Source: Escherichia phage PhaxI
DNA: 64,000 bases
Strand: one strand, 5' to 3'
Sequence record: JN673056
Shown here: one piece after another, positions 11,770 to 59,732 of the stretch
Layout: every line of letters starts with the position of its first letter
How positions within the stretch are numbered: position 1 is the stretch's first letter
Translations under genes and position numbers: made by a program
The notes under the pieces: model-generated
The model's input: the letters and a program-made list of their open reading frames with translations, nothing else
The model's database searches: none
What the model was told of the DNA's origin: nothing

Positions 11770-11812
11770 ATCTGGAGGGTGAAATTCCCTCCAAACAAGC
11801 GAGGGGTTCACC

Positions 11813-12092: not shown

Positions 12093-12398
12093 ATGTCAAA
12101 ATTATTGACTCCAAAATTATTATCAATGGGTGGTTCCATATATTTTCATTGTCCTGGATGTAATATGCTTCATCCTTATCGCATTTCAGGGCAAATGCCT
12201 GGCCCAATATGGCAATGGAATCACGATCTCGAATCACCGACTTTCACTCCTAGTCTGTTGGTGAATCATTCTCATCCGGCGAGTCGTTGTCATTTGTTCT
12301 TGACTGATGGTAAATTACAATTCCTTGGTGACTGTTTCCACGAATTAAAGAATCAAACGGTGGAGATGGTTGATATCCCCGAACTGAAATATGGATAG
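12093..12398 (+). CDS. hypothetical zinc-ribbon protein
   Basis: ATG at 12093 after GGAGGCGTGAT; CPGC...H and C.H cysteine/histidine clusters. Confidence 0.45.
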   Translation: MSKLLTPKLLSMGGSIYFHCPGCNMLHPYRISGQMPGPIWQWNHDLESPTFTPSLLVNHSHPASRCHLFLTDGKLQFLGDCFHELKNQTVEMVDIPELKYG

Positions 12399-14270: not shown

Positions 14271-14898
14271 ATCTAATTTCTTGGCCGTCGCTGATAGCGA
14301 AACTCTCGGTCGTTGGGATGATGCTGTCATGTTGTCTTGGGCACAGACTATCGCCGACCTGACCAAGCGTTATACTCTTCAGCAGCTTGTTGTAGAGCGC
14401 ACGACATTTATCAAACTGAATGTCAAAGAACAGATTGAACTTGGCCGTGTGAAAGACCAGGGCACTGTGGAATGGTGGCTGGGTACAGGTAAACGCAACC
14501 CGTGCGACGCCGCCCGAGCTATCAGTCTATATCCGACCGACAAGGATATTTCTATTTTCAAATTGGCCGATGAAATTCGCAAGGGATGCCATCGCCTTGG
14601 GATCGACCCGCGATCGGTTGACTGGTGTGATAGGAATCTGTTTGACCTACGCAAGGCTCAGCACATCATTGAGGTGACGTGTAAGCAAGATTCCAACGAA
14701 CCTTGGGTCTATCACCACACATTTGACATCGTAAGCTGGCTGAAGGGTATTGGGCAGCAGGATCGATATGCTGGTATCAAGGCGTGGGAACTGGAAGGTA
14801 TGATCTATCATGACCCTCGTTATGATGCGGCGCTTGACTGGCTACGCATTCAGAAAACCATGGAAGACCTGATGGGGGCTGAAAGGTGGAAAGGATGA
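14263..14898 (+). CDS. DEDDh-type 3'-5' exonuclease (DexA-like)
   Basis: Exo I-like FLAVADSETLG and Exo III-like YHDPRYDAALD motifs. Confidence 0.45.
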   Translation: MYKSNFLAVADSETLGRWDDAVMLSWAQTIADLTKRYTLQQLVVERTTFIKLNVKEQIELGRVKDQGTVEWWLGTGKRNPCDAARAISLYPTDKDISIFKLADEIRKGCHRLGIDPRSVDWCDRNLFDLRKAQHIIEVTCKQDSNEPWVYHHTFDIVSWLKGIGQQDRYAGIKAWELEGMIYHDPRYDAALDWLRIQKTMEDLMGAERWKG

Positions 14899-21471: not shown

Positions 21472-22029
21472 ATGAAATATTTTGAGAAATTTCCACTCGT
21501 GTGGCATCAATTAATTGGTGTCAAAGAGGATGACCAAGTCCTGTTGCAGAACTTAACACGACGGGTTATGGTTGTTAAGAAAATTAGGGACATAGAAGGG
21601 CTTCTCCTGCCGTATACTGTTTTCGATGGGGAAACCCCAAGGTCTTTTGCCGAACGCGTCTACGGTTCCTTCGAGCTGTTTTGGATCCCATGTCTTATCA
21701 ATGGTATCATGGACATCACAGAGGACTGGCCAAAACCAGAGCGCCGTATCATTGAAGAACTGACGGCTCGATACGGCCTTGACGGAATGTGGGATGTGAA
21801 ATACTACGTTGACGAATTCGGTCATGAAACAGATCCTAGAGCAATACGTTTAGCATATGGCCTTGGTTCTATGGATGATTCCACGATTATCGCCAACTAT
21901 GGCCTGACAGGTATTACATATCATGATGATGCTATAAACAAAAACGAAGCCAAACGGAATATTCAGGTTCTAGACCCAGATTATGTTTCTTCCTTTGTTA
22001 ATCAGCTAGAACAGGAGCTGACCAAATGA
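21472..22029 (+). CDS. 53: baseplate wedge protein (gp53-like)
   Basis: ATG 21472 after TAAGGAGAAAG; segment TPRSFAERVYGSFELFWIPCLINGI resembles the LysM-like region of T4 gp53. Confidence 0.5.
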   Translation: MKYFEKFPLVWHQLIGVKEDDQVLLQNLTRRVMVVKKIRDIEGLLLPYTVFDGETPRSFAERVYGSFELFWIPCLINGIMDITEDWPKPERRIIEELTARYGLDGMWDVKYYVDEFGHETDPRAIRLAYGLGSMDDSTIIANYGLTGITYHDDAINKNEAKRNIQVLDPDYVSSFVNQLEQELTK

Positions 22030-23414
22030 TCGAAAATAAAGAATCCCAGGACGGAATTTTAACTCCGTCCACAACATTTGATTTGAAATATATGGCGATA
22101 TTACCGCACACGCCTGAAGGCGGTACTCCCAAGCCTTATGACCTTTCATCGTTGTTTCAAGAATTCAACGTATATCAGGATCTTGGTCTGGAAGGGAATG
22201 CATCACCGTCGTTGACAGCTAATATTCTGATCAAAGAAGGCTGGGATATATTGGATACAATGCCAATCCTCGGAGGTGAGGAAGTAGTGGTATCGTTCAA
22301 ATCACCTGCGGCTTCCGACTACACTACGCTTTCATTGCGAGTCAGTCGGGTGGGGAGAGTTGCTGACGAATCGAACTCTTCTTCGAAAAAGGCATTCTGG
22401 TTGCACTTGGTGACAACAGACGCGTATCGAGATAGCATGTTGCGTAAATCTGTTGGATTAAGCGGTTCTTATTCTGAGATGGCAGCTAAAATCTTTGAGC
22501 AACTGAATTCACGCACCAAATTTGAAGACATAGATCCTTCATATGGGATACAAGAAAGGTTCGCTACCCCTCTTTGGCCTGTACTCCGCTCCATAGATTA
22601 TATGGCCAGCCGTGCATATGACGAATTATTCATGCCATTCGTTTTCTATGAAGACTTTACGGGTTATCACTTCAAAAGCATGACGACGTTGTTCAACCAG
22701 GGCAACCAGTCTATGACTGCTGAAGAGAAGCAAGAGGCTTCTATTGAAAAGAAATTCTTCCGAGACCCTCAAGACGCGCCGTTGATGCAGGATAACAATT
22801 TCAACTCAGAACGTTTCATGCGGACTATAATCAAGGCTGAAAAGAAACTGGCGCGTGATCAGTACATGGCGAATTATCGGGATATCTTGGCAGTGAACGA
22901 GCGCGTGTATGACTTTAGTACAAAATCCACGACAGCGACCCAACGCATTTATTCAGAATGGTTTGACAGCACTGCTCACCTTGATCCGTTCCCTTTGTTC
23001 TCGGATCAATTTGATCGTGAAAATGTTCGTTATATCGAGGCACAACCAGATGGAGCTGAACAAATAGATTATGCTCGCCGCGTAATAGAATTCAGTCTAG
23101 CATCTACGGTTATGCGTTTGCTCGTGGTCGGCGATAACCGCCTGAACGTTGGTCAGGTTTATTATATTGAAGATTTGTCGAACCGCCCGAAATCTAATGA
23201 AAACATTGCCGAGTTAAGTAAGTTATCAACAGGCCATTATATCGTCACAAAGATACGCCACAAGATTTCACGCCTGACAAATGATTATCAATGCGTCGCT
23301 GAGATTGCCAAAGATAGTATGATCCAGAAGGTCTTACCGCCTCAGACTGGTCAAACTGTGGCTTCTACACCAACTCCGACGCCAATAGAGAAAGGACAAG
23401 CCCAGAAGGTCTGA
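22026..23414 (+). CDS. putative baseplate hub / structural protein
   Basis: 462-aa ORF inside the morphogenesis operon between gp53 and the tape-measure-like gene; no motif recognised. Confidence 0.3.
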   Translation: MIENKESQDGILTPSTTFDLKYMAILPHTPEGGTPKPYDLSSLFQEFNVYQDLGLEGNASPSLTANILIKEGWDILDTMPILGGEEVVVSFKSPAASDYTTLSLRVSRVGRVADESNSSSKKAFWLHLVTTDAYRDSMLRKSVGLSGSYSEMAAKIFEQLNSRTKFEDIDPSYGIQERFATPLWPVLRSIDYMASRAYDELFMPFVFYEDFTGYHFKSMTTLFNQGNQSMTAEEKQEASIEKKFFRDPQDAPLMQDNNFNSERFMRTIIKAEKKLARDQYMANYRDILAVNERVYDFSTKSTTATQRIYSEWFDSTAHLDPFPLFSDQFDRENVRYIEAQPDGAEQIDYARRVIEFSLASTVMRLLVVGDNRLNVGQVYYIEDLSNRPKSNENIAELSKLSTGHYIVTKIRHKISRLTNDYQCVAEIAKDSMIQKVLPPQTGQTVASTPTPTPIEKGQAQKV

Positions 23415-23424
23415 GAGGTGACAA

Positions 23425-23470
23425 ATGGCAGATAACAATCAACCGACATGGCAGATAACAATCAACCGAC
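23425..23470. repeat. perfect 23-bp tandem duplication (2 copies) containing the start codon of the downstream gene
   Basis: ATGGCAGATAACAATCAACCGAC occurs twice back to back; the first copy carries the RBS (GAGAGGTGA) but is out of frame (23 nt shift). Confidence 0.9.
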
Positions 23471-25388
23471 ACCAGGGCAGCAAGACATCGTCAAGGTTTT
23501 GGATAAAATCAAAAAAGAAATGATGGAGCGCAAGCAATTGCGCGCCCAATCCGAGACGAATAAACAGCTCGCAGATGTCAACAAACAACTGCAATCTCTG
23601 AAGACACGCCAGGCGTCTAATCAGGAGCAGAAAGTCCCGCCAATTAAATTCCCATCGGTGAATGATATTGTTGGTGGGTTTGTCCGCGTCAGTCCTATTT
23701 TCACAAGGGATTACAGCACTTGGATGAAAGACACCGTCAGTCTTTCCAAGGACGGAAATGAAGAACTGATGCGAATCGCAACCAAAATAGAAAAATTTGG
23801 CGAAGCGGCGAATGGTCCGGTTGACGACATGTCAGTTGAATATCTTGACATGATATCAGATCAATTGGGCGCGGCCAACGAAGATAGTCTTGAACGCCTT
23901 GATGGATTAAAGGATAAGCTGGCGTTGGTCGGAGGGGAGATCGTAAACCTGACTGACATAATGCTTCAAACGCATAAGGACACGCTGGATTTCAATAAAG
24001 ATGCCAGTAACGAAACTGTTACCCGCCTCGACAGCATTGATGACAAATTGGGATACATGAACGAAGATCTTAATGATACTCTGACACGTATCTATGAAAG
24101 TGATCAAAAATATAGAGAAGAAGAGAAATTCCGTCGTGGCGAAGAAGGTAAGGAAAACAAGAACAACCCAGAGGCTGGTTCTATCCCTCCGTCTGAGCCT
24201 AAACAAGATGGTCAATCTTCTGGGTTAGGCGCGGCGCTGGGGGCACTCCTTGGACTGGGTGCGTTAAAACTCCTGATGTCCCCATTAAAACTTGTTGGTG
24301 GCTTCATTAAATTATTCATGGGGTTTGGTGCTGGGATCGGCGGGTTACTTGCGCCTCTGAAAGCAGCAACCAAGATGCTTCGAGTTGGACCTCTGGCGTT
24401 AATAACATCTGTATTTGAATTCGGTAAAGGTTTCTTTAATGCTAAAGAAATCCTTGGTAAAGCGCAAGTATCGATCGTTGATCGGGTTCAGGCAGGGATA
24501 ACAGAGCTGGTCGGTAGTTTCGGGGATCTCGCTGATTGGGTTGCTGAAATATTCGGATGGAACAATGCTGGGTTTGGAAAGGCGTTCCGTGAACAAGTGC
24601 TGAAAATGACCGAAGCGCCCGTGCGTTGGTTGAACTCGATTGTTGATTGGGTCACCAACGATTTGTTTGCGGGTATCGGGAAGAGTACATCACTGACCGA
24701 AATCCCTGGTAAACTTGCAGACAACTTACAAGGCCAATTGATAAAATTGGTTGATTGGGTAACGGGCGGGATATCGGGATTGATTGATGATGGCATGGCG
24801 GCTGCAAATAAAGTCGTTGAAGATATGAAGAAAGGATTTGCGGAAAACGTGAAGAAACCATTCTTTAATATGTTGAATGCCATAACCAATGCCATGTTTG
24901 ATATCGTGGATAAATTCGTGAGTATCATACCTGATGCTCTGGGTGGTGAAGCAGCCAGGAACAAAATGGCGGAAGCAAGACAGTCTATGCTAATCAGCCA
25001 AGACGATAAGGCTCCTGAGAATGCGTCTACGCCGCCAAGCAGCCAATCACCAGCACAACCCAATGCCAATATCAGCACGTTAACTCCAATGCCTTCTGGG
25101 GTGTCCTCAGACGCTGTCAACGTTACGGATAGAACTTCACAATTGAAAGACGCATACGCAGGGATTGGGGGAGGTACTCTGGGCGGGGCTTATCCGGTTC
25201 AAGGAAGAGCAGCCAATAACATCGAAGAAGTTAAATCCGCCTATGCTAACCCGCCAGCCAGTGTTGTGGTTCCAGTACAACAAAATGTGGACAACTCGAA
25301 GAAAGTCAGTACGACGAACAACTTCAATAGTTCACAGTTGGAGCCGTCCAACCGTACTGATACAGGGCGCATTCTCTGGGATTGGTAA
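23448..25388 (+). CDS. tail tape-measure-like protein (gp29-like)
   Basis: 646 aa; N-terminal coiled coil, glycine-rich hydrophobic segment (GLGAALGALLGLGALKLL...GFGAGIGGLLAPL) and internal repeats (LADWVAEIFG, IVDWVTNDLFAG, LVDWVTGGISG). Confidence 0.45.
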   Translation: MADNNQPTPGQQDIVKVLDKIKKEMMERKQLRAQSETNKQLADVNKQLQSLKTRQASNQEQKVPPIKFPSVNDIVGGFVRVSPIFTRDYSTWMKDTVSLSKDGNEELMRIATKIEKFGEAANGPVDDMSVEYLDMISDQLGAANEDSLERLDGLKDKLALVGGEIVNLTDIMLQTHKDTLDFNKDASNETVTRLDSIDDKLGYMNEDLNDTLTRIYESDQKYREEEKFRRGEEGKENKNNPEAGSIPPSEPKQDGQSSGLGAALGALLGLGALKLLMSPLKLVGGFIKLFMGFGAGIGGLLAPLKAATKMLRVGPLALITSVFEFGKGFFNAKEILGKAQVSIVDRVQAGITELVGSFGDLADWVAEIFGWNNAGFGKAFREQVLKMTEAPVRWLNSIVDWVTNDLFAGIGKSTSLTEIPGKLADNLQGQLIKLVDWVTGGISGLIDDGMAAANKVVEDMKKGFAENVKKPFFNMLNAITNAMFDIVDKFVSIIPDALGGEAARNKMAEARQSMLISQDDKAPENASTPPSSQSPAQPNANISTLTPMPSGVSSDAVNVTDRTSQLKDAYAGIGGGTLGGAYPVQGRAANNIEEVKSAYANPPASVVVPVQQNVDNSKKVSTTNNFNSSQLEPSNRTDTGRILWDW

Positions 25389-26051
25389 TCAAATTCCGTG
25401 GGCAAGGATTAGCTCACGGAGTTTTCCTTTTGTGTATTCTGTGTTTTCATCAGGAACAACTGAATTGGTTTTCTTTAATAAAAAGGACTCAGAGTTCCAA
25501 TAGATGTCATCCTTGAGTATTGTATCATATAAATGGATGAACCCCACTACTTTATTCAATCCAACTAGAAACCAAATTGGATAGCGTTTAACAATAATAT
25601 CTGTCAGTAAAGGTGGATGCCCATTACCATTTCCTTTGATATATTGGATAAAATTCACGCCTCTTTCTTTTATCTCAGGGATCATATATCTCTCAAAATG
25701 TTCAAGAAAATTATATGAGAAGTTGTCATACAGGCGGCGATATTCATTATAATTTTCTTGAGCCTGACGGGTGAGTAATGTTGTCACCCATGTTTTTGGT
25801 GATTTAACAAAGTTGGCGATGATATAATTTTCCACCACTTCACCCTGGGAAGATTCAAACCGACGAGCAAGTTTGGCAAATTGTTTGGCCACACCCTGTT
25901 TAGAATAGAACGTTTCAAACTTGTAATTGTTCATCGGCCCATACAGGCCATAATCAAAATCTTTGGTGGTGAAATGCAACTTGATCGCCATATATATGCA
26001 ATAAACGTTAAATGCACGTTCGTATTGCATTTTCTCCCACTCAGTTATCAT
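25389..26051 (-). CDS. 59: helicase loader (gp59-like)
   Basis: 220 aa; pattern Y.IY.AIK.H...D...Y and spacing resemble T4 gp59 (217 aa) as recalled. Confidence 0.45.
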   Translation of the reverse strand: MITEWEKMQYERAFNVYCIYMAIKLHFTTKDFDYGLYGPMNNYKFETFYSKQGVAKQFAKLARRFESSQGEVVENYIIANFVKSPKTWVTTLLTRQAQENYNEYRRLYDNFSYNFLEHFERYMIPEIKERGVNFIQYIKGNGNGHPPLLTDIIVKRYPIWFLVGLNKVVGFIHLYDTILKDDIYWNSESFLLKKTNSVVPDENTEYTKGKLRELILAHGI

Positions 26052-26192
26052 GGCGTTTCTCCCTGCTTTTCTGTTTCTGTAATCTGCTGCGTTCAGAACA
26101 GAACTGATTGAACTCCGTCACCAAGCCTTTCTCCTTTATAAAGAGAATGGCGTTTCGAAGCAATTCCAATCTTGGCATATGACGGCGGATTT

Positions 26193-26456
26193 TTACCAAC
26201 CACGTGATCTCTCCTCTGTGCGAACGAAACGTTGAAACTCTTCTGTCTTCCCTTGTCGGTGAATAAAAACCAACGCCAGAATAAAACGCCGAAAAGATTT
26301 TGGGATAAGACGATAACCGTTTGTCCAATTATAGACAACGTCAGAACAATTCATCATCTTCATCATCTGTAATTCAGAAACTCCCAATTCCCTCATAATG
26401 TTTATGAGATTAAGAGAATCATTGTCTTTCCTTGGTTTCTTATCAATAAGTTTCAT
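26193..26456 (-). CDS. HTH DNA-binding protein
   Basis: 87 aa; LINIMRELGVSELQMMKMMN helix-turn-helix-like segment. Confidence 0.4.
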   Translation of the reverse strand: MKLIDKKPRKDNDSLNLINIMRELGVSELQMMKMMNCSDVVYNWTNGYRLIPKSFRRFILALVFIHRQGKTEEFQRFVRTEERSRGW

Positions 26457-26533
26457 AATAACACCTGGTAATGATTTCTTGGAATTATACTGCTACTGTC
26501 TTTATTGAATGGGGTTCCGAAGAACCCCGATTT

Positions 26534-27961
26534 TCATGCCGCTTCCAACAACACCAAAATATTTTCGATATATGCTTTCTGGATAGCATAGACTTCAGCC
26601 AGTGTATTAGCGACTTTCTTGTCTGTGCGTACTTCAACGAGACGTGGAAGGAATAGAGACTTCATGGCGTCATCGGTTTTATCCTGTACGCCATTAGAGA
26701 GCACGGCGGCAATCTTACCAATGAAGTCCTCTTGGTTTTCCCACATTCGTAGTCTCAACTCATCTGAGATCCCCGATACGCCAACAACTAAGAGGCTATC
26801 AGAGGTCTTGCAGAGGAGAGATCCAAATGTCTTGGCGTGCTTCCCTTTCTTATCGGCCTCGTTGAAGCCAACGATTTCAAGGTCACATTCTACTTCCATT
26901 TTTAGCTTTAACCCTTCAGATGATGTTCCATCTTCCCAAGGCATATCTGCGGCCTTACAAATCGTGCCTTCTTCCCGACGAGCCAAAGCGTCTTTGAAGT
27001 GTTCGACAGCTTCTTCAAATGAATGAACAACACGGGTTTCTTGAACCTGAACCAGTCCGTCATCCCCTTCGAACAACTGTTGTATAATATCAAAACGGCG
27101 CTCATATGGGGTGTCCACACGCTGAGCATTGAACCAATTATCATACGGCACAACGTCCCATACCCGATAGATCACCTTGTAACGATCTTCCAGGGGTTCA
27201 CCCGTTTGGATAACACTGTTGAGCTTACCATTGCCGATAGCCCGAGGCAACACTGTATTCGTTTTCAGATCAATGACGAGCAGTTCACCATGGAAGACGC
27301 TTTCACCAATCCCCGCATCGTAGATCAGGTCTTTGAAAACCAATGATAGGTTATCAACGGAACCACCCGCAATAAGAGAACCGGAACGAGAACGAATCTC
27401 TGGGTCTCTTCCATAACGACAGATGATGTTGGCAAACATGCCATCTGACTTCAGCTGGCTGAAGACGCCGCGCTTGAAGTCCATCTTCTTCAGCAAGTCA
27501 ATCGTCATGTTATCATAACGGTGATATGGAAGGATATTAATCAGACGCCCTGTACCACCTGCTGCGTTGAATGCTGCGTTTATACCTTTCTCGGCAATTC
27601 CCGCTTTGATGTCTCTGTCGAGTATAATTTGTATCAGGGTATGGTAATCCGGATGGATGTTGGTCGCGGCCTTCGCAAGTTCTTGATCTGCCTTCATCCC
27701 ACCGATCTTGCGTTCGGCCATCATATCAAGAACGTCATAAACCTGATCCCAGCTACCGACAACGCCGCGCGAGAGCATGCGAGGGAATGCGTTTAGATTG
27801 AATTGAGTGCGGTAATAAGAACGCATCGGATCGTAGACGTATTGAAGGAAATCAACCAATTCTGGGTTGTTTCTGAACGCCTCGGTCAGCACAGCTTTCT
27901 TGGCGTTGGTGCCTTTGGTATCGCGAAGATTTTGAATTATTTCTAAAAGAGGAAGCATCAT
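26534..27961 (-). CDS. 30: ATP-dependent DNA ligase
   Basis: 475 aa; adenylation motif I KSDG (QLKSDGMF), motif IV-like EGTICK, motif V-like LLCK; size like T4 gp30. Confidence 0.75.
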   Translation of the reverse strand: MMLPLLEIIQNLRDTKGTNAKKAVLTEAFRNNPELVDFLQYVYDPMRSYYRTQFNLNAFPRMLSRGVVGSWDQVYDVLDMMAERKIGGMKADQELAKAATNIHPDYHTLIQIILDRDIKAGIAEKGINAAFNAAGGTGRLINILPYHRYDNMTIDLLKKMDFKRGVFSQLKSDGMFANIICRYGRDPEIRSRSGSLIAGGSVDNLSLVFKDLIYDAGIGESVFHGELLVIDLKTNTVLPRAIGNGKLNSVIQTGEPLEDRYKVIYRVWDVVPYDNWFNAQRVDTPYERRFDIIQQLFEGDDGLVQVQETRVVHSFEEAVEHFKDALARREEGTICKAADMPWEDGTSSEGLKLKMEVECDLEIVGFNEADKKGKHAKTFGSLLCKTSDSLLVVGVSGISDELRLRMWENQEDFIGKIAAVLSNGVQDKTDDAMKSLFLPRLVEVRTDKKVANTLAEVYAIQKAYIENILVLLEAA

Positions 27962-28014
27962 GTGTCTCCAGGGTTATTCGTCATGCTATTATAACCCTAG
28001 AGACTTCAATAGAT

Positions 28015-28401
28015 TTATTTGCTGCGTCTTTTTCTGTTGTTCGGTGGTGTGGCAGAGGTGAAAGATTCCTTCCAACTCTTGAATTTTTCAATCAGGGATT
28101 CTTTCCCCATCTCACCGTTGGAAACATCATGGATATAAGCAAATGCGTCATACCCATATCCTGGTAAAGCAGAACAGATTCGAAGGCGAACCAAAGATTC
28201 TCCCACAGAAACCAAATAATGATCGCGACGATCATTCAGAGCATAATGATTGTCATGGAATTTGTCGATAACAACACAGTTCTGGGGTTCGGCGTCAATT
28301 GCCAGCCCGTTGGCTTCGCTACCGCCGCGCCCAAGGGTGCATCCTGGGAATAATGTTTCTACAAGTGTGGTCATAGTCTGATCCTTCTGTAAAGTTCCCA
28401 T
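28015..28401 (-). CDS. hypothetical protein
   Basis: 128-aa ORF; GRGGSEANGLAID glycine-rich segment. Confidence 0.4.
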   Translation of the reverse strand: MGTLQKDQTMTTLVETLFPGCTLGRGGSEANGLAIDAEPQNCVVIDKFHDNHYALNDRRDHYLVSVGESLVRLRICSALPGYGYDAFAYIHDVSNGEMGKESLIEKFKSWKESFTSATPPNNRKRRSK

Positions 28402-28421
28402 GCATTATATGGGTAAATCGT

Positions 28422-28841
28422 TTATTGAAAATCGTGATGGCCGTATGCGCCCTCTTCGGCTTCATCGCGTTCAGCTTCTCTTATCTCAGCCTTTGAAGCC
28501 CCAAGGACTCTGAGCTGGCGAGAACTGAACAGAGGATAGTCCATTCCGTCGAATCGGATATAACCACAACCCGCCTTATTGAGTTTGTCCATCTGCTCTT
28601 CAGTGAGGCCAGCAGAAAGGCGGACAGACTCTTTCCGCAAATCAGAAAGGATTGCCTGCGCCGATTTAGGTCGCTTGCCATTCAGGGACCGGTCTGTTGG
28701 GGTATCTTTACGACACCCAAAGGTCTTCCAGTAGGCGGCGCAAGACTTAGAACAGAACAACCCCCAGCCACGGTCAATGTCGGCCTGGCGAACCATCTTC
28801 TTGTTCGGACAGCATTTGCATTGGATTTCAACTTTTGACAT
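28422..28841 (-). CDS. hypothetical Cys-rich zinc-ribbon protein
   Basis: Start trimmed to ATG at 28841 (MSKVEIQCKCCPNKK...) with GGGGTG upstream; CKCC...C..C clusters. Confidence 0.4.
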   Translation of the reverse strand: MSKVEIQCKCCPNKKMVRQADIDRGWGLFCSKSCAAYWKTFGCRKDTPTDRSLNGKRPKSAQAILSDLRKESVRLSAGLTEEQMDKLNKAGCGYIRFDGMDYPLFSSRQLRVLGASKAEIREAERDEAEEGAYGHHDFQ

Positions 28842-29181
28842 TGTGACACCCCAGAGCTTTGCGGACTTTTTCACGGTCATATGTATCGACCTGAATTGCT
28901 TCACGATTAATCCGACGCCTGTGATGTCGGGTGAGCGCTTTATACACGGCCTTGGCCTCATGGTATGGCAGACAATCGAAACAAAAACCGATATCGACTC
29001 TATACCCTGCGCTGCTATTGACTGTATATGCACATACCCTTACGCCGTTATAGATGACAGCATCGATACCGACAAAGCGTTCACCATTCCATTCAACGTC
29101 ATCAGCGTCGATGGCATCAATAAGACAACGGATTTCGACGCTTAGGGGTTTCCCCAACAACCAGTTAAAATATTTGCGCAT
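28828..29181 (-). CDS. hypothetical protein
   Basis: 117-aa ORF. Confidence 0.4.
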   Translation of the reverse strand: MRKYFNWLLGKPLSVEIRCLIDAIDADDVEWNGERFVGIDAVIYNGVRVCAYTVNSSAGYRVDIGFCFDCLPYHEAKAVYKALTRHHRRRINREAIQVDTYDREKVRKALGCHNVKS

Positions 29182-29182
29182 G

Positions 29183-29395
29183 TCATTTACTCATCAGTGA
29201 AAGAAGATTGACTTTATCTGAACGTGCGTTTGGTGAGTAATGCACGTCCTGAGAGTGCCTCTTACAGCACGGACAATCCTTGGTGGCAATTACACAGGGA
29301 GCCTTATCCACGGCATATCCGGCTTCTTCGGCTTCCTTCACGGTGTTAAATGGCAAGTATGCACTTGTGCCTTGCCCTCCGCATGAACATTCCAT
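29183..29395 (-). CDS. hypothetical Cys-rich protein
   Basis: 70-aa ORF with CSCGG...C...CPCC. Confidence 0.35.
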   Translation of the reverse strand: MECSCGGQGTSAYLPFNTVKEAEEAGYAVDKAPCVIATKDCPCCKRHSQDVHYSPNARSDKVNLLSLMSK

Positions 29396-29595
29396 TAGAA
29401 ATCCTCCTTGGTAATGAAGAGCAAATCAGATTTCAGATTTTGGCGCTTGACACGGCGGACATGTCGATGCTCCTTTTTAATACCGTCTGAACGTTTTGAT
29501 TTAGAGCGGCGATTTTTGTATGTGTCCGCTGGGTACTTGTCATGGCCTGGACAACAAGATCCAGGGTAGTAAACATCCAAGATTTCCCGTTTCAT
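29395..29595 (-). CDS. hypothetical basic protein
   Basis: 66-aa ORF with GSCCPGH and a lysine/arginine-rich tail. Confidence 0.35.
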   Translation of the reverse strand: MKREILDVYYPGSCCPGHDKYPADTYKNRRSKSKRSDGIKKEHRHVRRVKRQNLKSDLLFITKEDF

Positions 29596-29711
29596 TAACG
29601 TTTCCTCTTAAATGGGATGATCAGGGCTATGATTAACAGCATAGCTGTGATCACTCCGCATGCGATAAGACCGAATGCAAATGCTTTCAAAACAAATTGT
29701 AAAAGAATCAT
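29595..29711 (-). CDS. small hydrophobic peptide (about 38 aa, not in ORF track)
   Basis: Hand-translated MILLQFVLKAFAFGLIACGVITAMLLIIALIIPFKRKR; start overlaps the upstream stop (ATGA) and its stop overlaps the next start (TAATG). Confidence 0.3.
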   Translation of the reverse strand: MILLQFVLKAFAFGLIACGVITAMLLIIALIIPFKRKR

Positions 29712-30901
29712 AATTTCCTCAGTTTTGCCCTTGTAATCTGAGTTTGTTTAATACCTTTGAATTCGGTCAATTCTTTGACACGACCTCGAATGATCATATC
29801 GCCTTCTAAAAACTCGGTTTCCATATAGGAAGTCTTCCATGTAATGGTATTGCCTTCCTTGGTTTTGAAAGTATACAGATACGTGTCACCATAATCAGAT
29901 GAATACAGGAAAATCCTTGCTTCAAATTTGACCTGTGCTTCTAACATTTCACCAACTTCACCAACCCAATTTGATACAGTGCGCGTTTGGCGGGGGGTGT
30001 GGATATAATCATAATACTTTGCTGCTCCCCAACGAACTGTTGTTGAGTCTTTAACAAGGTGATAACCAGGTTCGCACATACGTTTCAGCCGGACGTTGAA
30101 ATCGTTATTTTCAGACAACGATGCGATGAAAAGCATCATATGATACATCTCTGATTGAGCATCTTCACGGGCTTTAACAGCCTTGTTATAGAATATATCA
30201 ATGTCAGAACCTTTCTCCGGACGAGTCCCGCTAGAGATATGACCAAGAACTCGACCAAAATCATCACTTTTAATGCTCATTCCCGACAGCAAAACCTGAA
30301 AGCATTTACACAAATATCCTTCTGTGTCAACATAATCTGGTTCATTAACCCGATAAATCCCTTCTGGGTCATCTTCATCGGGGGTAAACATTTCGTGAAT
30401 AGACATGTAATAAGACATAACCGCATCAAGGGATTTCTGATGCGGGACATAATGATGCATACAGCTGCTACCCACGAGCATCTGTGCGCCAGATTGTTCG
30501 TTACGAACGACATATGTGTTATGACGACGCACAGATTTGTTGCAATGCTCGCACCAAGATACGTTTTCAGCTTCAAATCTTTGAATGAAATTTGGGTGGA
30601 TGTCATCTGACAGTTTATTCAGAATGACTTTTGGATACTGGTGGTTGAATTGTCCAATGATACTCCACCCACCATAAGAAACGGGGCGGTCGATGCCTTC
30701 ACCAGTTAGAGTACAATCTTGCCACCAACGATAAAATTTTTCGCCAGTGATAGAATCGCGGTGTTGTGTTTTGTATGGTTCACTGAACTCAACAAGAGGA
30801 AACTCGAGATTCAGGCGGTTTGCCGTTCTTTCAAGTTTGGCAAGACGTTCCTTGACACGACCAATATTATCAATTGGGATGCTGAAGGTCTTGGCTTTCA
30901 T
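29708..30901 (-). CDS. hypothetical protein
   Basis: 397-aa ORF, first gene of a tightly packed minus-strand operon; no motif recognised. Confidence 0.5.
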   Translation of the reverse strand: MKAKTFSIPIDNIGRVKERLAKLERTANRLNLEFPLVEFSEPYKTQHRDSITGEKFYRWWQDCTLTGEGIDRPVSYGGWSIIGQFNHQYPKVILNKLSDDIHPNFIQRFEAENVSWCEHCNKSVRRHNTYVVRNEQSGAQMLVGSSCMHHYVPHQKSLDAVMSYYMSIHEMFTPDEDDPEGIYRVNEPDYVDTEGYLCKCFQVLLSGMSIKSDDFGRVLGHISSGTRPEKGSDIDIFYNKAVKAREDAQSEMYHMMLFIASLSENNDFNVRLKRMCEPGYHLVKDSTTVRWGAAKYYDYIHTPRQTRTVSNWVGEVGEMLEAQVKFEARIFLYSSDYGDTYLYTFKTKEGNTITWKTSYMETEFLEGDMIIRGRVKELTEFKGIKQTQITRAKLRKL

Positions 30902-31018
30902 TTTTGCCTCTCATGATGTAGTGAAACTTTTCAATGTAGGTTAAATGATAGCCGCAAGTTTTATTGAAGTAAAGTTTTATTGAAGTAAAGCCCAACAAAT
31001 GTTGGGCTTTAACCGATA

Positions 31019-35068: not shown

Positions 35069-35613
35069 TAGAACTCCAGAGTCAAAGGGGTTTCCGCGGA
35101 CTTATCATAGTTCGCACCGCCAGCAGCACGTAGACGATTGCGATCGTTCTTGCGCTTGTGGGCCAGCATGTAGGTCTCAGCATCCAGCCCCAAATATCCG
35201 CAAGCCGCTGCCAAGAAGGTAGCCAAAACATTCCGAAGAGGGTGTGACATGAAATACGTGAACAGTTCAGTCACTTTCCTGAGGTCGTGAGGGGTTTGAA
35301 TTGGCTGCGCCTGAACGAATCTCACCATTTCGGGAATATCGTGTGGTTTGTCTTCCTCCTGCAGGACAGCACAGAGCATGAAGTGAACAACGTCCACCAA
35401 CTCGTATATGGCATCCACTTGTCGCCAATGCTTACCACCCCCATAGATCTTCCAGTCTATGGTTGTTTCGTCTAGAAACTCTGCCCACTCACGATAGATG
35501 GAGTTTGCTATCGCCACTTCGGTCCAGCGCTTCTTCCACTCTTCCCCAAAATAGGCCACGTTGGTGGCCTTTTGAAGTTCGAGCAGACTTTTAATATGCT
35601 CTGCTGTGATCAT
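35068..35613 (-). CDS. all-alpha NTP pyrophosphatase (gp56 dCTPase/dUTPase-like)
   Basis: Segment YELVDVVHFMLCAV resembles the ELVD..HF helix recalled for T4 gp56 / MazG-like NTPases. Confidence 0.45.
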   Translation of the reverse strand: MITAEHIKSLLELQKATNVAYFGEEWKKRWTEVAIANSIYREWAEFLDETTIDWKIYGGGKHWRQVDAIYELVDVVHFMLCAVLQEEDKPHDIPEMVRFVQAQPIQTPHDLRKVTELFTYFMSHPLRNVLATFLAAACGYLGLDAETYMLAHKRKNDRNRLRAAGGANYDKSAETPLTLEF

Positions 35614-36194
35614 TTCCGATCCCTATAAAATTTGACGAACGGTTGCCAACCTTCAAACGGATTGACAAATTCATAATCAACTTCCATCTTATCAATGAAA
35701 GCCTCAATGTCATCCTCTATGATACCACCGCGATCCGCCTTTGAAATGCGGGTGATGGGACATTTAGTGCTCAGCGCCCATTCATATTCCTGAGGGGTGC
35801 GCAAATCACTCACGATATAATGAACGTGTGGGTTCTGTTCCACCAAAGGAAGTTGATATCGTTTAAAGAATGACAGAAACAGGTCTGGTTGTACGTAACG
35901 CAAGCCCGTATCGCTGCCGAGATGAAGCCAGATCTGCCTTGGGGTTAATCCCTTGGGGTTATCTGGGTGAACATATGGCAAGTCCTTGATGTCGTCCTCC
36001 ACCTCCGCTGGTAGCCATGGGTAGATGAAATTGGCGACACGTCGCAGTTCATCTGAGAAAGACAGACGACGAATATCCTTATCACCCTGAATATGATGAA
36101 ACCTGATCAGGGACTCCAAACAGAAGTCCTTGCCGGAGCGCTTGCGCCCCGTGAAGAATTCAAGGTTCTGGTACATCATTCGCCATACCCCCAC
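35610..36194 (-). CDS. 1: deoxynucleoside monophosphate kinase (gp1-like)
   Basis: P-loop FFTGRKRSGKD resembles T4 gp1 LSGVKRSGKD. Confidence 0.65.
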   Translation of the reverse strand: MGVWRMMYQNLEFFTGRKRSGKDFCLESLIRFHHIQGDKDIRRLSFSDELRRVANFIYPWLPAEVEDDIKDLPYVHPDNPKGLTPRQIWLHLGSDTGLRYVQPDLFLSFFKRYQLPLVEQNPHVHYIVSDLRTPQEYEWALSTKCPITRISKADRGGIIEDDIEAFIDKMEVDYEFVNPFEGWQPFVKFYRDRK

Positions 36195-37219
36195 ATAAAT
36201 TTCTGATCAACAGGGGAATGTAGTAATGCAGTACGAAGACCGTCATCAGCGATACGGCGTTTGTCAATTTTGGTATCATTGAGTCGACACCACAGGCAAT
36301 ATGACATATCCATCATCAATCCCGTGTCTGCTTGATATCCTTTCAGATGTTCTCTGATTTTACCAAAATCACTGCCGATGTCACAGTGATGTAACACGCC
36401 GAGGAATAGATTACAAATATCTTTTTGGGACTTCACTTTTTCTGAAGAGAATTCCAGCAAAGAATTATACATCCCAGAAGAAGTTTTGGTCTTCTTAGTG
36501 ATACCCCCGAGTTGTTTCCGACTAACTTCATTGTTGTAATAATGAAGATTGTTAGAAAACAGTTTGTAATACCCAACTTCGACATTCAGCACTTTCGCCA
36601 GAACTTCTTGCAGGATAGAGAATTCAATGAAATTGATTGAACTCATGCCCCACAAGACATCTTGGCTGCGGTTAATGACAGTGATATTCAATCGCCCTTC
36701 TGTTATACTGAACAATAGAGCAAGATTACAGATCATGTCCTTGGTCTTGGCTTCTCCAGTTTCACTATGGGTGGCCAAACCTTCATCTGAGTCCAGCGCC
36801 GGATCATAGATGGTGAGATACGCCTGACGGGTGTTGGGATTATTACGCAGACGGCTGATGACACTATCCAACTGGCCATTATTGTACAGACGTGGGCCAT
36901 ACGCGCCTCGCCAGGTTACACCGTCATCAGAGAAGTTGGCGGCGCGGGGTAAGACTTTCGAAAGGAAACGGATATCATTACGTCCGGACAACACCCAGAA
37001 TGTCTCACCGATGGCAGCAATTGCCGACGAGTTGCGGCCTTCAACGGAAAGCCAACGGTCACGTGGATCTGATACTGTAATTGTTACACCATCAATGAAA
37101 CGAGTGCCGTCAGTGTTAATCTCTGCGTTGCCAGGATCTGACTCAATGCCGTGTTCACGGATGGCCAACACAGCCTTCTTCAGCATATCATTATTGTTTA
37201 AAGCAAAAATTTCCATCAA
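36176..37219 (-). CDS. thymidylate synthase-superfamily pyrimidine hydroxymethylase (gp42-like), with C-terminal extension
   Basis: RQAYLTIYDP (like gp42 RRGIMIYTRP), catalytic-Cys motif DMICN (like gp42 DFMCTN, unlike TS PPCH) and NRSQDVLWG (like gp42 MRSNDVVFG); 347 aa versus 246 aa for T4 gp42. Confidence 0.6.
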   Translation of the reverse strand: MMEIFALNNNDMLKKAVLAIREHGIESDPGNAEINTDGTRFIDGVTITVSDPRDRWLSVEGRNSSAIAAIGETFWVLSGRNDIRFLSKVLPRAANFSDDGVTWRGAYGPRLYNNGQLDSVISRLRNNPNTRQAYLTIYDPALDSDEGLATHSETGEAKTKDMICNLALLFSITEGRLNITVINRSQDVLWGMSSINFIEFSILQEVLAKVLNVEVGYYKLFSNNLHYYNNEVSRKQLGGITKKTKTSSGMYNSLLEFSSEKVKSQKDICNLFLGVLHHCDIGSDFGKIREHLKGYQADTGLMMDMSYCLWCRLNDTKIDKRRIADDGLRTALLHSPVDQKFMWGYGE

Positions 37220-47059: not shown

Positions 47060-48685
47060 ATGGGTTTCAATATGTTAGACAACTTGCGTTGGTTTTACGG
47101 GCGCGTTGAAGACGTGAATGATCCCGATCAAAACGGGCGCGTCGCAGTACGCATCTATGGGGTACAACACGAGGATACCACTCTCCTGCCTACAGAATTA
47201 TTGCCTTGGGGTAAAATGCTTATGCCAGCATCTAACGCCTCCTCGGCAGGTTTAGGCTGGTCTCCGACGGGTATCACTGTCGGCTCTGACGTCATGGGGT
47301 TTGCTTTGGATGAAGCATATCAGAACATCCGTATTGCATGGGTATGGCCAGCAGCAACACCAACAGATGGGTCAGATACAAACCCATTGGCGCTGGGTCA
47401 GGTCGTTCAATCTATAGAAAGGCAGAAGTATAATGCCGTCGAGAATGTTCCTGTTAAGATTGAGGATGAACCGCAACCGGATCCACAACCACCAGTAGAC
47501 GGATATGATCCTGAGAAGTGGATGACCGTGGCTCGTGGGGAATTGGGTGTCAAAGAATATTCTGGTAAGTTCAATAACAACCCAAGGATATTGGAATATC
47601 ATAAGACAACTTCCCTGGGGGCTTCAGAAGATGAAGTTAGTTGGTGTGCGTCGTTTGTTGGATGGGTTCTGATACAGGCCGGATATACATCAACACGTTC
47701 TGCTTTGGCTCGTTCATATTTACAATGGGGGTCTCCTCTGTCAGAACCACGTTACGGCGCTGTTGTAGTGTTCCGGCGCGGGAACAACCCGACATTCGGT
47801 CACGTTGCATTCGTTCAGAAATTTGACGCCAACTACGTTTGGTGTATCGGGGGAAACCAATCCGATTCTGTGAAGGTGAGCCGTTTTAGCCGCTCATCCG
47901 TGTTGGGTTATCGTTGGCCAGGTCCAGCAACTACAGCTTCAGCAGCTCCGGCACAACAAAACGGTAAATGGTCTGAACCTATTCCAGATCGTACCCCGAA
48001 AGTCCAAGAAACACCGCCTCCTTCTGGTCGTGTTCAGGATATTGACAATACAGGAGAGGTATCGGTTCCTTCGGCTGGGGGGTCTCGTTATCCATACAAC
48101 AATGTTATGGCTTCTCGCGCTGGGCATATTATGGAGGTCGATGACACTCCAGGCGGGGAACGTTTGCATTGGATGCACTCTTCTGGGTCTTACAAGCAAA
48201 TGCTTCCTGACGGTGATGTTGTTAATAAATCAGTCAAAGATCATTATGACCTGACGATGTTCGACAAACGTTATTATGTGGGGGGTGATCATAACCTGAC
48301 AATTGGTGGGACTGAAGTACAGCGTAAGAAAGGAGAAGTTTACCACTTACACTCTTCTAACTATTCCAATGTGGTCGCTGGAACAGCGTTGATGAAATTT
48401 TCCCAATTGGCTGAGATACAGGCACAGAACGTGTTGCGTCTCATCTGTGAAATGTTTGAAGTGTCTAACACTTTGAAGGTTCCTAAGATACTGGCAACTG
48501 AAATAATTTGTGATAAATTATCGGTCGCACAGACTATTGAAGGCAACATCAAATATGCTGAAGGCGCTGGTCGCGCCGCCTCACGTGCGGGGGCAACTCC
48601 TGTAACAACTACAGGCCCAGGTCCAATTGATATAAAACCGGAGTTAGAGGATAACGGTGGCAATTTTGGTGGTAAAGGCGCATGA
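47060..48685 (+). CDS. 5: baseplate central spike / hub protein gp5-like with CHAP peptidase domain
   Basis: N-terminal OB-fold signature NLRWFYGRVEDVNDPDQNGRVAVRIYG like T4 gp5; central Cys/His domain (SWCASFVGW ... TFGHVAFV) typical of CHAP/NlpC-P60 hydrolases; Gly-rich C-terminus. Confidence 0.7.
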   Translation: MGFNMLDNLRWFYGRVEDVNDPDQNGRVAVRIYGVQHEDTTLLPTELLPWGKMLMPASNASSAGLGWSPTGITVGSDVMGFALDEAYQNIRIAWVWPAATPTDGSDTNPLALGQVVQSIERQKYNAVENVPVKIEDEPQPDPQPPVDGYDPEKWMTVARGELGVKEYSGKFNNNPRILEYHKTTSLGASEDEVSWCASFVGWVLIQAGYTSTRSALARSYLQWGSPLSEPRYGAVVVFRRGNNPTFGHVAFVQKFDANYVWCIGGNQSDSVKVSRFSRSSVLGYRWPGPATTASAAPAQQNGKWSEPIPDRTPKVQETPPPSGRVQDIDNTGEVSVPSAGGSRYPYNNVMASRAGHIMEVDDTPGGERLHWMHSSGSYKQMLPDGDVVNKSVKDHYDLTMFDKRYYVGGDHNLTIGGTEVQRKKGEVYHLHSSNYSNVVAGTALMKFSQLAEIQAQNVLRLICEMFEVSNTLKVPKILATEIICDKLSVAQTIEGNIKYAEGAGRAASRAGATPVTTTGPGPIDIKPELEDNGGNFGGKGA

Positions 48686-48749: not shown

Positions 48750-49124
48750 ATGAAAGAGTACAAAGACATTGACCTGAAGTTTGGCATGCATCCGGTCACC
48801 AAAGATGTCACTAAGAAAACAGGCATTTATGCTGTACTACAATCTGTGCGAAATATCGTGATGTCTACAGTAGTGATTGGGCCGACGTATCCGAGTATTG
48901 GGGCGGGGTTGTATACCATGCTGGGAGAAAATACAAATCCCACGATTACAGTCGACGTGAGACAAAGTGAAGATGCCATGCTCTTTGAGCCAAGAGCTGA
49001 ATTGCAATCTGTTGATGTATCATTGTCTGACGATTATCATTCTCTGGGCGTAACCATCACGTTCTATGTGGTCAACAACCCAGAGCCGATAACAGACACC
49101 ATATGGTTAAAACGCACAAACTGA
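48750..49124 (+). CDS. 25: baseplate wedge protein (gp25/GPW/TssE family)
   Basis: Start ATG 48750 after AAAGGGG; pattern VLQSVRNIVMST..G...P..G......EN......V...........EPRAELQSVDV matches gp25/TssE. Confidence 0.55.
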   Translation: MKEYKDIDLKFGMHPVTKDVTKKTGIYAVLQSVRNIVMSTVVIGPTYPSIGAGLYTMLGENTNPTITVDVRQSEDAMLFEPRAELQSVDVSLSDDYHSLGVTITFYVVNNPEPITDTIWLKRTN

Positions 49125-58045: not shown

Positions 58046-58662
58046 TAGATATTTGGCCTCTGGAACACTTCTGTCACATTATAATCCACCCCGCGACTTT
58101 GAGCTATGCAAAGCTGTCGCCAAGCCCCATACAGAATATTTTGTTCCGCAACCTGATTGCGTTCAAAGTTGGCAAATTCTTCCAGCATCTGTTTGTACCC
58201 TAATAGATAAGGAGGGATATCTGTAGGACTCTTGCCAAAGATGGCCAAAGACAAATATGATGCATAATGTTCCGGTGAAGACAAAGAGGAAATATGCATA
58301 TTCGGAACGTGAACGGGCTTCAAAGATTTTCTAGGGGTGAAGTACAACAAACCCCCATTTGGAGGGAGGTCTTCAATTTTAATAACATCTGCTGGGCAAA
58401 CATAGAAACGATATGCTCCCATGCCTATGGAAGGATTCATGCGATGAGGTTTCTTTTTGTCTGTCAGGAAGTCGGCGCGGGAGACTTTAACTTCCATTAA
58501 TATAGAACAACCCCCAGGTCTGAACCCGATGGCGTCAGGGGATTCACGATTATCGAATGAATTTGGTTCTACGAACACAGCACCACAATTCATTTGTTTG
58601 TGTAGAAATTTTGCAGCGATTTGACAACCTTCTGAGTGAGAAGGTATAAAGATTTTGCCCAT
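58045..58662 (-). CDS. hypothetical protein, possible PD-(D/E)XK nuclease fold
   Basis: Segment DAIGFRPGGCSILMEVKVSRADF has D...E.K spacing reminiscent of PD-(D/E)XK nucleases; weak. Confidence 0.3.
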   Translation of the reverse strand: MGKIFIPSHSEGCQIAAKFLHKQMNCGAVFVEPNSFDNRESPDAIGFRPGGCSILMEVKVSRADFLTDKKKPHRMNPSIGMGAYRFYVCPADVIKIEDLPPNGGLLYFTPRKSLKPVHVPNMHISSLSSPEHYASYLSLAIFGKSPTDIPPYLLGYKQMLEEFANFERNQVAEQNILYGAWRQLCIAQSRGVDYNVTEVFQRPNI

Positions 58663-59079: not shown

Positions 59080-59100
59080 GATATTTACCCCTAAAAAGAA

Positions 59101-59125
59101 AATCCCCCTGTATTTAGGGGGATTG
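59101..59125 (-). terminator. Rho-independent terminator
   Basis: AAUCCCCCU-AAAUACA-GGGGGAUU followed by UUCUUUUU on the minus strand. Confidence 0.5.
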
Positions 59126-59135
59126 TATTTTATAA

Positions 59136-59681
59136 TCACTTTTTACCAAAAAACGATTTTAATAAATTATCAGGAATTTTTGGAAGACCTAATTTTGCCG
59201 CCAGTTCTTCTGGGGAATTACCCAAAATTTTTCTACCGTTGATGAGACCACCAACAAATTTGGTTCGATCTGTTGGACTGCGAAGGATAGTGGAGGCACC
59301 GCCAACTTTTGCGTCATACATCAGAATATGAGCGCCACGGTCACCGACGAAACGCCAGCCTTCCGCTTCAGTAACCTGACCTTTGTCAGCTGACTTGCCG
59401 AAGAAAAATTCAAAACCATCATGGACGGCAACAACTTCTTGGCCTTGGGTAATGCCGTGGGTCTGGTCTGGAGTTAGCTTCACTTTGATGGTGTTGCCAT
59501 TAGTCAATTCCAGATTATAGATGTCGGCCTGATTATCTGGAGTGATCTGGGTCACGGTGGCACCAGTACACCATTGGGTTCCGTCGGCCTGTTTGGTGAT
59601 GGTTACACTTTTGCCTTGTATGCCGCCATGAGTTTGCGGTTGTTGAGCTTGTTCTTTAAAATATTCGATAAACGGTTTCAT
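59136..59681 (-). CDS. hypothetical protein, candidate capsid-packaged (internal) protein; paralog of a segment of the 795-aa neighbour
   Basis: N-terminus MKPFIEYFKEQ resembles T4 capsid-targeting sequences (MKTYQEFIAEA); C-terminal 120 aa align with residues about 170-300 of ORF 59733..62120 (shared ...SP...LGLP(K/Q)IP.N.L..F). Confidence 0.4.
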   Translation of the reverse strand: MKPFIEYFKEQAQQPQTHGGIQGKSVTITKQADGTQWCTGATVTQITPDNQADIYNLELTNGNTIKVKLTPDQTHGITQGQEVVAVHDGFEFFFGKSADKGQVTEAEGWRFVGDRGAHILMYDAKVGGASTILRSPTDRTKFVGGLINGRKILGNSPEELAAKLGLPKIPDNLLKSFFGKK

Positions 59682-59732
59682 CGTGGATCTCCTAAGGATT
59701 TTGATGTATTTAGCCCCCGAAGGGGCTATGAC

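Follow-up and report, generated by a model that had tools for sequence, protein, structure and literature searches.

In the deposited sequence of Escherichia phage PhaxI (JN673056), the gene for the putative tail tape-measure protein opens within a perfect 23-nt tandem duplication that contains its start codon. We estimate at roughly two chances in three that the second copy is a 23-nt overlap which was left unmerged when separately determined pieces of the genome were joined. When joins and template artefacts are taken together, we hold with somewhat greater assurance that the duplication is an artefact. What speaks for an artefact is that a single record, early and composite, shows the duplication, that this record also has other indel errors, and that the burst size reported for the phage is very large.

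RESULTS

Two start codons behind one ribosome binding site

The stretch analyzed here (the window) comprises the first 64 kb of the PhaxI genome (156,628 bp; Kuttervirus, Ackermannviridae) and begins at the rIIA ATG. An earlier note on this DNA had described a perfect 23-bp tandem at the start of a tape-measure-like gene. Both direct reading of the sequence and Tandem Repeats Finder bear this out: ATGGCAGATAACAATCAACCGAC is present as two perfect tandem copies at 23425-23470 (Table 1), and the match extends by one extra base, an A at 23471. The program returned the repeat as 23425-23471, with a period of 23, 2.0 copies, 100% matches and a score of 94, the highest of any tandem repeat in the 64-kb window. 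Considering that about 64000 x 4^-23, or ~1e-9, perfect tandems of this length are expected by chance per 64 kb, the repeat is not a chance match. On the minus strand, the list of open reading frames holds only chance ORFs of 34-51 aa at this site.

The same note held that the ribosome binding site, given as GAGAGGTGA (23413-23421), serves the first ATG (ATG1), and that the 646-aa frame starts at the second (ATG2) with no such site of its own. We computed anti-Shine-Dalgarno (anti-SD) duplex energies for 85 gene starts in the window, and the values agree with both statements. The pairing at ATG1 amounts to -10.1 kcal/mol and outscores 96% of the starts; that at ATG2 (23448) is +0.4 kcal/mol, effectively no pairing, and falls among the weakest 6%, indicating that an SD-less start of this kind is rare in the PhaxI window. 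The mRNA around both ATGs is predicted to be unstructured (centroid energy 0, z = 0.12). An out-of-frame ORF does start at ATG1, as had been claimed, although it has 32 codons and a stop rather than 33 codons. With one copy deleted, the site takes on exactly the arrangement found in every relative, down to the base, which restores a normal start, as the note had anticipated.

The duplicated unit has the A of the ATG as its first base, and its 23 nt have a GC content of 43% and a nearest-neighbour Tm of ~57°C; a unit of this length and Tm that starts on the ATG resembles a primer or the boundary of a coding sequence. It contains no base upstream of the ATG, hence none of the SD. The microhomology at the unit boundary is limited to 1 nt, the A shared by the unit start and the base after the unit, which does not suggest replication slippage, and we rejected a slippage origin on this ground. 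We also rejected a role of the repeat at the DNA level, for instance as an iteron or a protein-binding sequence, considering that it occurs in one record only and lies inside a coding leader.

Table 1. Features at the start of the tape-measure-like gene in the deposited PhaxI sequence (window coordinates)
Feature	Position	Strand	Description
Upstream gene, 462-aa tail / putative baseplate hub protein	22026..23414	+	phrog_350 'tail protein', E 2e-102
Shine-Dalgarno core GAGGTGA	23415..23421	+	3 nt 5' of ATG1 (23425)
Copy 1 of the 23-nt unit	23425..23447	+	holds ATG1, the start codon of all relatives
Out-of-frame ORF (uORF) from ATG1	23425..23523	+	32 codons + TGA (23521-23523); peptide MADNNQPTWQITINRHQGSKTSSRFWIKSKKK
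Copy 2 of the 23-nt unit	23448..23470	+	holds ATG2, the deposited start of the 646-aa frame
646-aa putative tail tape-measure protein gene	23448..25388	+	first-ATG ORF of its frame
A_AAA_AAG heptamer	23511..23517	+	X_XXY_YYZ phase in the ATG1 frame; (start - ATG1) mod 3 = 2
ATGATG	23520..23525	+	M25 and M26 of the 646-aa ORF; ATGA overlap with the uORF stop TGA
Hairpin GCGCAA-GCAA-UUGCGC	23528..23543	+	6-bp stem, GNRA-type GCAA loop, 10 nt 3' of the heptamer

The tape-measure-like gene and its upstream neighbour

The 646-aa product is identical to PhaxI accession ADQ55837.1, indicating that the depositors annotated the gene from ATG2. It is 99.8% identical over its full length (646/646 aa) to orf36 of Salmonella phage S117, and we count this otherwise pristine state of the gene in favour of an artefact. 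The protein matches phrog_3799 (function unknown) over its full length, gives no Pfam match and no PDB sequence match, and carries a long hydrophobic segment rich in Gly, Ala and Leu. For a tail of roughly 100 nm, a tape measure of about this length (646 aa) would be expected. Many depositors of related genomes label the homologues tape measure protein, and the gene sits behind gp48-like, gp53-like and 462-aa tail/hub genes. The syntenic counterpart was detected by mass spectrometry in virions of Vi01-like phages (PMC10892097), and in LIMEstone1 the counterpart, ORF27 (71 kDa), was likewise detected in virions and adjoins ORF26, which is labelled T4 gp27-like (PMC3296691). The tape-measure identity put forward in the earlier note therefore derives from synteny, depositor annotation and the virion proteomics of relatives, and we consider 'tape-measure-like' a fair label. 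The 462-aa protein encoded upstream matches PhaxI ADQ55838.1 exactly, and the TGA stop of its gene (23412-23414) abuts the SD of the 646-aa gene. Translation from the native start would give the N-terminal peptide (M)ADNNQPTPGQQDIVK.

Relatives carry a single copy

The window region matches 174 Kuttervirus (CBA120/Vi01-like) genomes at 90-98% identity and is co-linear with S117, to which it is 98.7% identical over 35 kb. Comparison with related phage genomes, a check that the earlier note had proposed, gave a single copy throughout. A 1201-nt query around the site aligns to 1178 nt in every relative among the matches listed, and the 96-nt site itself is covered in 73 nt by 30 of the 30 matches listed, of 173 related phage records. 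All 13 fetched relatives, including four Logan assemblies built from public read sets, are single-copy; 10 of them, aligned over the site, are base-identical to the window across 133 nt except for the 23-nt insertion. We also searched with a junction-centred 40-mer at a word size of 28 nt, a query that can be matched only by a genome bearing the duplication. It found no match among 50,697 phage records (PhaxI's own record not included) or among 20,395 E. coli records, and the junction 28-mer is absent from IMG/VR, GTDB (one genome per species) and the JGI metagenomes.

An exact-sequence look-up identified several window proteins found in PhaxI alone (among them AEW24255.1, AEW24249.1, AEW24247.1 and ADQ55832.1). 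Two Logan contigs that share one PhaxI-specific protein belong to other Kutterviruses, are 95-97% identical and carry a single copy; for a second PhaxI-specific protein, the read-assembly contig index returned no record. The uORF peptide and the protein truncated to M25 are both absent among ~15 billion predicted proteins. With none seen in the 173 related records, the 13 fetched relatives or the five collections searched, the duplication appears to be private to the PhaxI record.

We then aligned the start site across Kuttervirus, Taipeivirus (Serratia IME250 and Klebsiella Magnus), Limestonevirus (Dickeya RC-2014) and Escherichia phage LHE287. Across the four Ackermannviridae genera compared, there is no variation in the pattern CAGAAGGT.T.A.GAGGTGA, in the 3-nt spacing or in the ATGGC that comes next. 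In the protein, the same cross-genus set shows M1-A2 and the block V17-L18-D19-K20-I21-K22 to be invariant, as are, after this block, E24, M26 and R28-K29-Q30-L31-R32-A33-Q34, while residues 3-13 vary across genera. Judging from this alignment, the single-copy start architecture (GAGGTGA, 3 nt, ATG) appears to be ancient.

Elsewhere in the window, the spacer between the orf45 and orf46 homologues holds a perfect 16-bp tandem of 2.2 copies (AAGTTTTATTGAAGTA, 30956-30990), which has the same length as in S117. It is thus conserved, in contrast to the 23-nt tandem, and is a candidate regulatory element. Two patches diverge from S117. At 35200-36510, protein identity is only 68-93% for dUTPase, dNMP-kinase and thymidylate-synthase; at 59080-61545 the window lacks homologues of orf86 and orf87, and identity is 60% for the large homologue of orf89. 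Both patches look like ordinary recombinational mosaicism among Kutterviruses.

Record history and other private indels

PhaxI first appeared in GenBank as six fragments, HQ259285-HQ259290 (Anany et al., PMC3121705). The genes in 21472-30901, from the orf45 homologue down to orf34, bear protein IDs of the 2010 series (ADQ55827-ADQ55839), and the flanks of this block carry IDs of the 2011 series (AEW24254/55 to the left). Within the block, the ligase has the newer ID AEW24256 and the orf41 entry was revised to ADQ55833.2, showing that the block was edited during assembly of the complete genome. The one locatable ADQ/AEW boundary lies between orf33 and orf34, ~2 kb upstream of the duplication, and we accordingly rejected the idea that the duplication marks the boundary between the 2010 and 2011 series. 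That a boundary between two of the six fragments fell precisely at the ATG is conjecture.

The window was screened for private indels against four co-linear relatives (S117, CBA120, FEC14 and SFP10). Those found in PhaxI alone are mostly changes in homopolymer length within otherwise near-identical DNA. At 26155-26160, AAAA is reduced to AA, private against 13 relatives; all best matches listed, of 174 phage records, show the 2-nt gap at 26158. The loss frameshifts the 54-aa orf38 homologue (minus strand, ~26041-26203) and probably reflects a mistake in the sequencing of PhaxI. Further private changes comprise CC to C at 12384, near the orf14 stop; an additional A at 11782, within an intergenic spacer; GGGG to GGGGG together with two changes of AA to AAA at 14878-14890, which alter the dexA C-terminus; and a compensating indel pair at 47167-47171 in a gp5-like gene. 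In the gene for a gp25-like baseplate wedge protein (48750-49124, plus strand), a private cluster of compensating 1-2-nt indels (48874-48984) scrambles the protein locally: it reads STVVIGPTYPS where relatives have STVGDWPTYPS and, in a second stretch, TITVDVRQSEDAMLFEPR versus TIQVDVKNKVEDAIALFEPR, and its length is 124 aa versus 126 aa. In a conserved structural gene, such a cluster suggests read errors. In the orf84 homologue (minus strand, 58231-58295), TT is shortened to T, TTTT to TT and CCC to CC, and there is an apparent small local duplication (GCCAAAGATGGCCAAAGAC versus GCCCAAAGATTTAGAC in relatives), with a few codons scrambled. Taken together, the private indels have the pattern expected of early-generation sequencing and finishing errors rather than of evolution in conserved structural genes. 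These indels aside, the window holds intact, full-length counterparts of 88 of the 92 S117 genes.

Possible routes to the tape-measure protein in the deposited sequence

If the deposited sequence were translated as it stands, most ribosomes would load at the SD and ATG1 and translate the 32-codon dead-end ORF; the peptides (M)ADNNQPTWQITINR, TSSR or FWIK would mark translation from ATG1 and the frameshift product. Three incidental rescue routes, which the earlier note had missed, could still yield tape-measure protein. SD-independent initiation at ATG2, in an unstructured and A-rich leader, could give the wild-type protein. A -1 frameshift at the in-phase A_AAA_AAG before the uORF stop could lead ribosomes from ATG1 into the 646-aa frame, with a computed product of 654 aa. 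Termination at the uORF stop and reinitiation at the overlapping ATGA (23520-23523) could give a product computed at 622 aa.

The signals for the latter two routes vary in quality. The heptamer A_AAA_AAG ranks with the most shift-prone motifs in E. coli: it shifts at >0.1% when unstimulated and at tens of percent next to strong stimulators (PMC4066793). Runs of A close to a start codon have given 25-60% rescue of mutants with a 1-nt deletion (PMC1851650). In PhaxI, the 25-nt stretch 23524-23548, which contains the 6-bp stem, folds at -12.0 kcal/mol (z = -2.6). The usual spacing between heptamer and structure is 5-9 nt, slightly less than the 10 nt seen in PhaxI, and the hairpin is at best a weak frameshift stimulator; upstream of the heptamer, reading of the sequence revealed no convincing, well-placed SD-like stimulator. 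The SD-like pairing upstream of ATGATG is also weak (-3.1 kcal/mol). Every single-copy relative has the heptamer in the wrong phase, where it is inert, and outside Kuttervirus it is not conserved, with ATCAAGAAAGAG in its place in the Serratia and Klebsiella relatives. We conclude that the heptamer and the ATGA are accidents of a lysine-rich coding sequence, not selected signals.

DISCUSSION

Origin of the second copy

The following events would account for the deposited sequence. Two pieces of the genome, be they early GenBank fragments, contigs or PCR amplicons, would overlap by 23 nt; one would begin at the first base of the tape-measure coding sequence, owing to 'complete cds' trimming or to amplification with a start-codon primer, and the other would extend 23 nt into the gene. 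Concatenated end to end, with the shared 23 nt never collapsed, they would produce the observed repeat. The predicted ends are thus one at ...CAACCGAC and another beginning ATGGCAGATAAC..., and the real phage would have a single ATG, 3 nt after GAGGTGA, as in every relative. We infer this specific join from the privacy of the duplication, the composite and error-prone record, the primer-like unit and the good growth of the phage, each of which is directly documented. Some points count against this explanation. A perfect 23-nt duplication and the homopolymer miscalls elsewhere are different classes of error; the only fragment boundary that can be located is not at the duplication; and the deposited sequence plausibly retains low-level routes to the protein.

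In an alternative reading, the duplication is a recent spontaneous mutation which became fixed in the sequenced stock, for example through a plaque-purification bottleneck, and was tolerated. The duplication is unambiguous within the deposited sequence, and a real one could be survivable, since each virion needs only a few copies of the tape measure. The lack of structure around the start codons would leave ATG2 accessible, the heptamer has the correct phase in the ATG1 frame for a -1 shift into the 646-aa frame, a modest hairpin follows it at 10 nt, and the uORF stop overlaps an in-frame ATG. Against this stands the cost to the protein: both the frameshift and the reinitiation route destroy the V-L-D-K-I-K block (residues 17-22), invariant in four genera, so that native protein could come only from the inefficient initiation at ATG2. 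That codon lies 23 nt 3' of a start that is among the strongest in the window, and a 30S subunit placed there would overlap the mRNA bound by the complex at ATG1. A burst of 420 PFU per cell, termed 'very large', is given for PhaxI (PMC4330901, citing Shahrbabak et al. 2013), which speaks against limiting tail assembly and fits poorly with the loss of the ribosome binding site by an essential tail gene. Neither the related records nor the junction searches provided an independent sequence with the duplication, and the PhaxI record contains many other private, error-like indels.

Selection provides a further argument. In a recombination-proficient, T4-like phage, a perfect 23-nt tandem should revert readily, and revertants would outgrow a handicapped parent; single-copy phages would be expected to take over quickly. 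Selection should have favoured a duplication that takes in the SD, and the PhaxI unit has none; of the ~21 possible registers that contain the start codon, the one beginning on the ATG would be the least favourable. Considering these points, we regard a real, tolerated mutation as unlikely, if well short of negligible. The fuller proposition, that the duplication is genuine and that tape measure is made at a wild-type burst through SD-less initiation and/or an adventitious -1 'saviour' frameshift, we regard as distinctly unlikely. If it were true, an A_AAA_AAG located three codons before the uORF stop would afford a natural case of frameshift rescue of an indel in a structural gene, and expression of the tape measure would tolerate a drop of one or two orders of magnitude without cost. 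A real duplication would be a modest natural example of an essential, low-copy gene surviving the loss of its ribosome binding site, and would not represent a new kind of system.

The duplication could also have been present in the DNA molecule that was sequenced and not in the phage population, owing either to a mutation or chimera formed during whole-genome or PCR amplification or to selection during cloning, if the hydrophobic tape-measure protein, expressed from a strong ribosome binding site, were toxic in E. coli. PhaxI DNA is hypermodified and resistant to many restriction enzymes (PMC4330901), which makes an amplification- or clone-based strategy likely for the 2010 fragments; the Gly/Ala/Leu-rich segment and the fact that the duplication specifically separates the ORF from its ribosome binding site would fit selection during cloning. 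The case is purely circumstantial, however, and such a template artefact explains the exact start of the unit on the ATG no better than chance. We consider both variants together improbable.

The earlier note had left the choice between a recent duplication that down-tunes the gene or requires reinitiation, and an artefact. The artefact branch is the one we favour, given the private duplication, the error-prone composite record and the large burst; a down-tuning or reinitiation role finds no support, since the two-ATG arrangement is conserved in no relative. More generally, a programmed device, in which the uORF throttles the tape measure or recoding generates an N-terminal variant, is scarcely credible. 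The deposited sequence does hold all formal ingredients of a -1 recoding cassette and an ATGA coupling site. Yet the arrangement occurs in none of the 173 related records or fetched assemblies, the copies are identical and thus show no evolutionary age, single-copy relatives have the heptamer in the wrong phase and other genera have not conserved it, and the alternative products would miss the invariant VLDKIK motif. With zero conservation among relatives, we rejected a regulatory uORF or programmed frameshift, which is effectively refuted.

If the second copy is indeed an artefact, the value of the finding is curatorial, and the PhaxI reference NC_019452 should have one copy. Further indel errors corrupt the gp25-like wedge subunit, orf84, the dexA C-terminus and orf38 locally in the PhaxI record, and such errors are relevant to comparative genomics that includes PhaxI and to its use as a reference in phage therapy.

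Relation to known systems

Frameshifting beside the tape-measure gene is familiar from tailed phages, in which lambda G/GT-type tail assembly chaperone genes carry a conserved -1 frameshift directly upstream of that gene. The likeness ends with the location: the gene upstream in PhaxI encodes a 462-aa tail/hub protein, not a chaperone pair, and the putative shift lies inside the tape-measure leader and is not conserved. The PhaxI site is not a member of this class. With ATGA coupling and regulatory uORFs it shares the overlap of the uORF TGA with an in-frame ATG of the main ORF, but the PhaxI restart is internal (M25), its product would be without VLDKIK, and the uORF is owed to the private duplication. 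In T-even phages, short tandem duplications of the Streisinger type, due to slippage or misalignment, occur in the rII and lysozyme genes, and the PhaxI repeat resembles them in being a short, perfect, frame-shifting tandem in a T4-related phage. Slippage duplications are usually flanked by short direct repeats, and the mutants are unstable and normally recovered under selection; the PhaxI unit differs in having only 1 nt of microhomology.

The -1 frameshift of E. coli dnaX shares with PhaxI the identical A_AAA_AAG, in the right phase, and a small 3' hairpin (PMC4066793, PMC4344849), whereas in PhaxI the hairpin is short (6 bp) and 10 nt away, no well-placed SD-like stimulator is seen, and the arrangement is known from a single record. 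The PhaxI heptamer is closer to an adventitious 'saviour' frameshift (PMC5009743, PMC1851650) than to a programmed one.

The closest parallel may be found among known unmerged-overlap artefacts. The join proposed for PhaxI differs from those cases in that the locatable fragment boundary is ~2 kb off. PhaxI shares with them a perfect tandem of primer or k-mer size, undiverged and confined to one record, in a genome that was built from separately deposited pieces and re-opened at rIIA.
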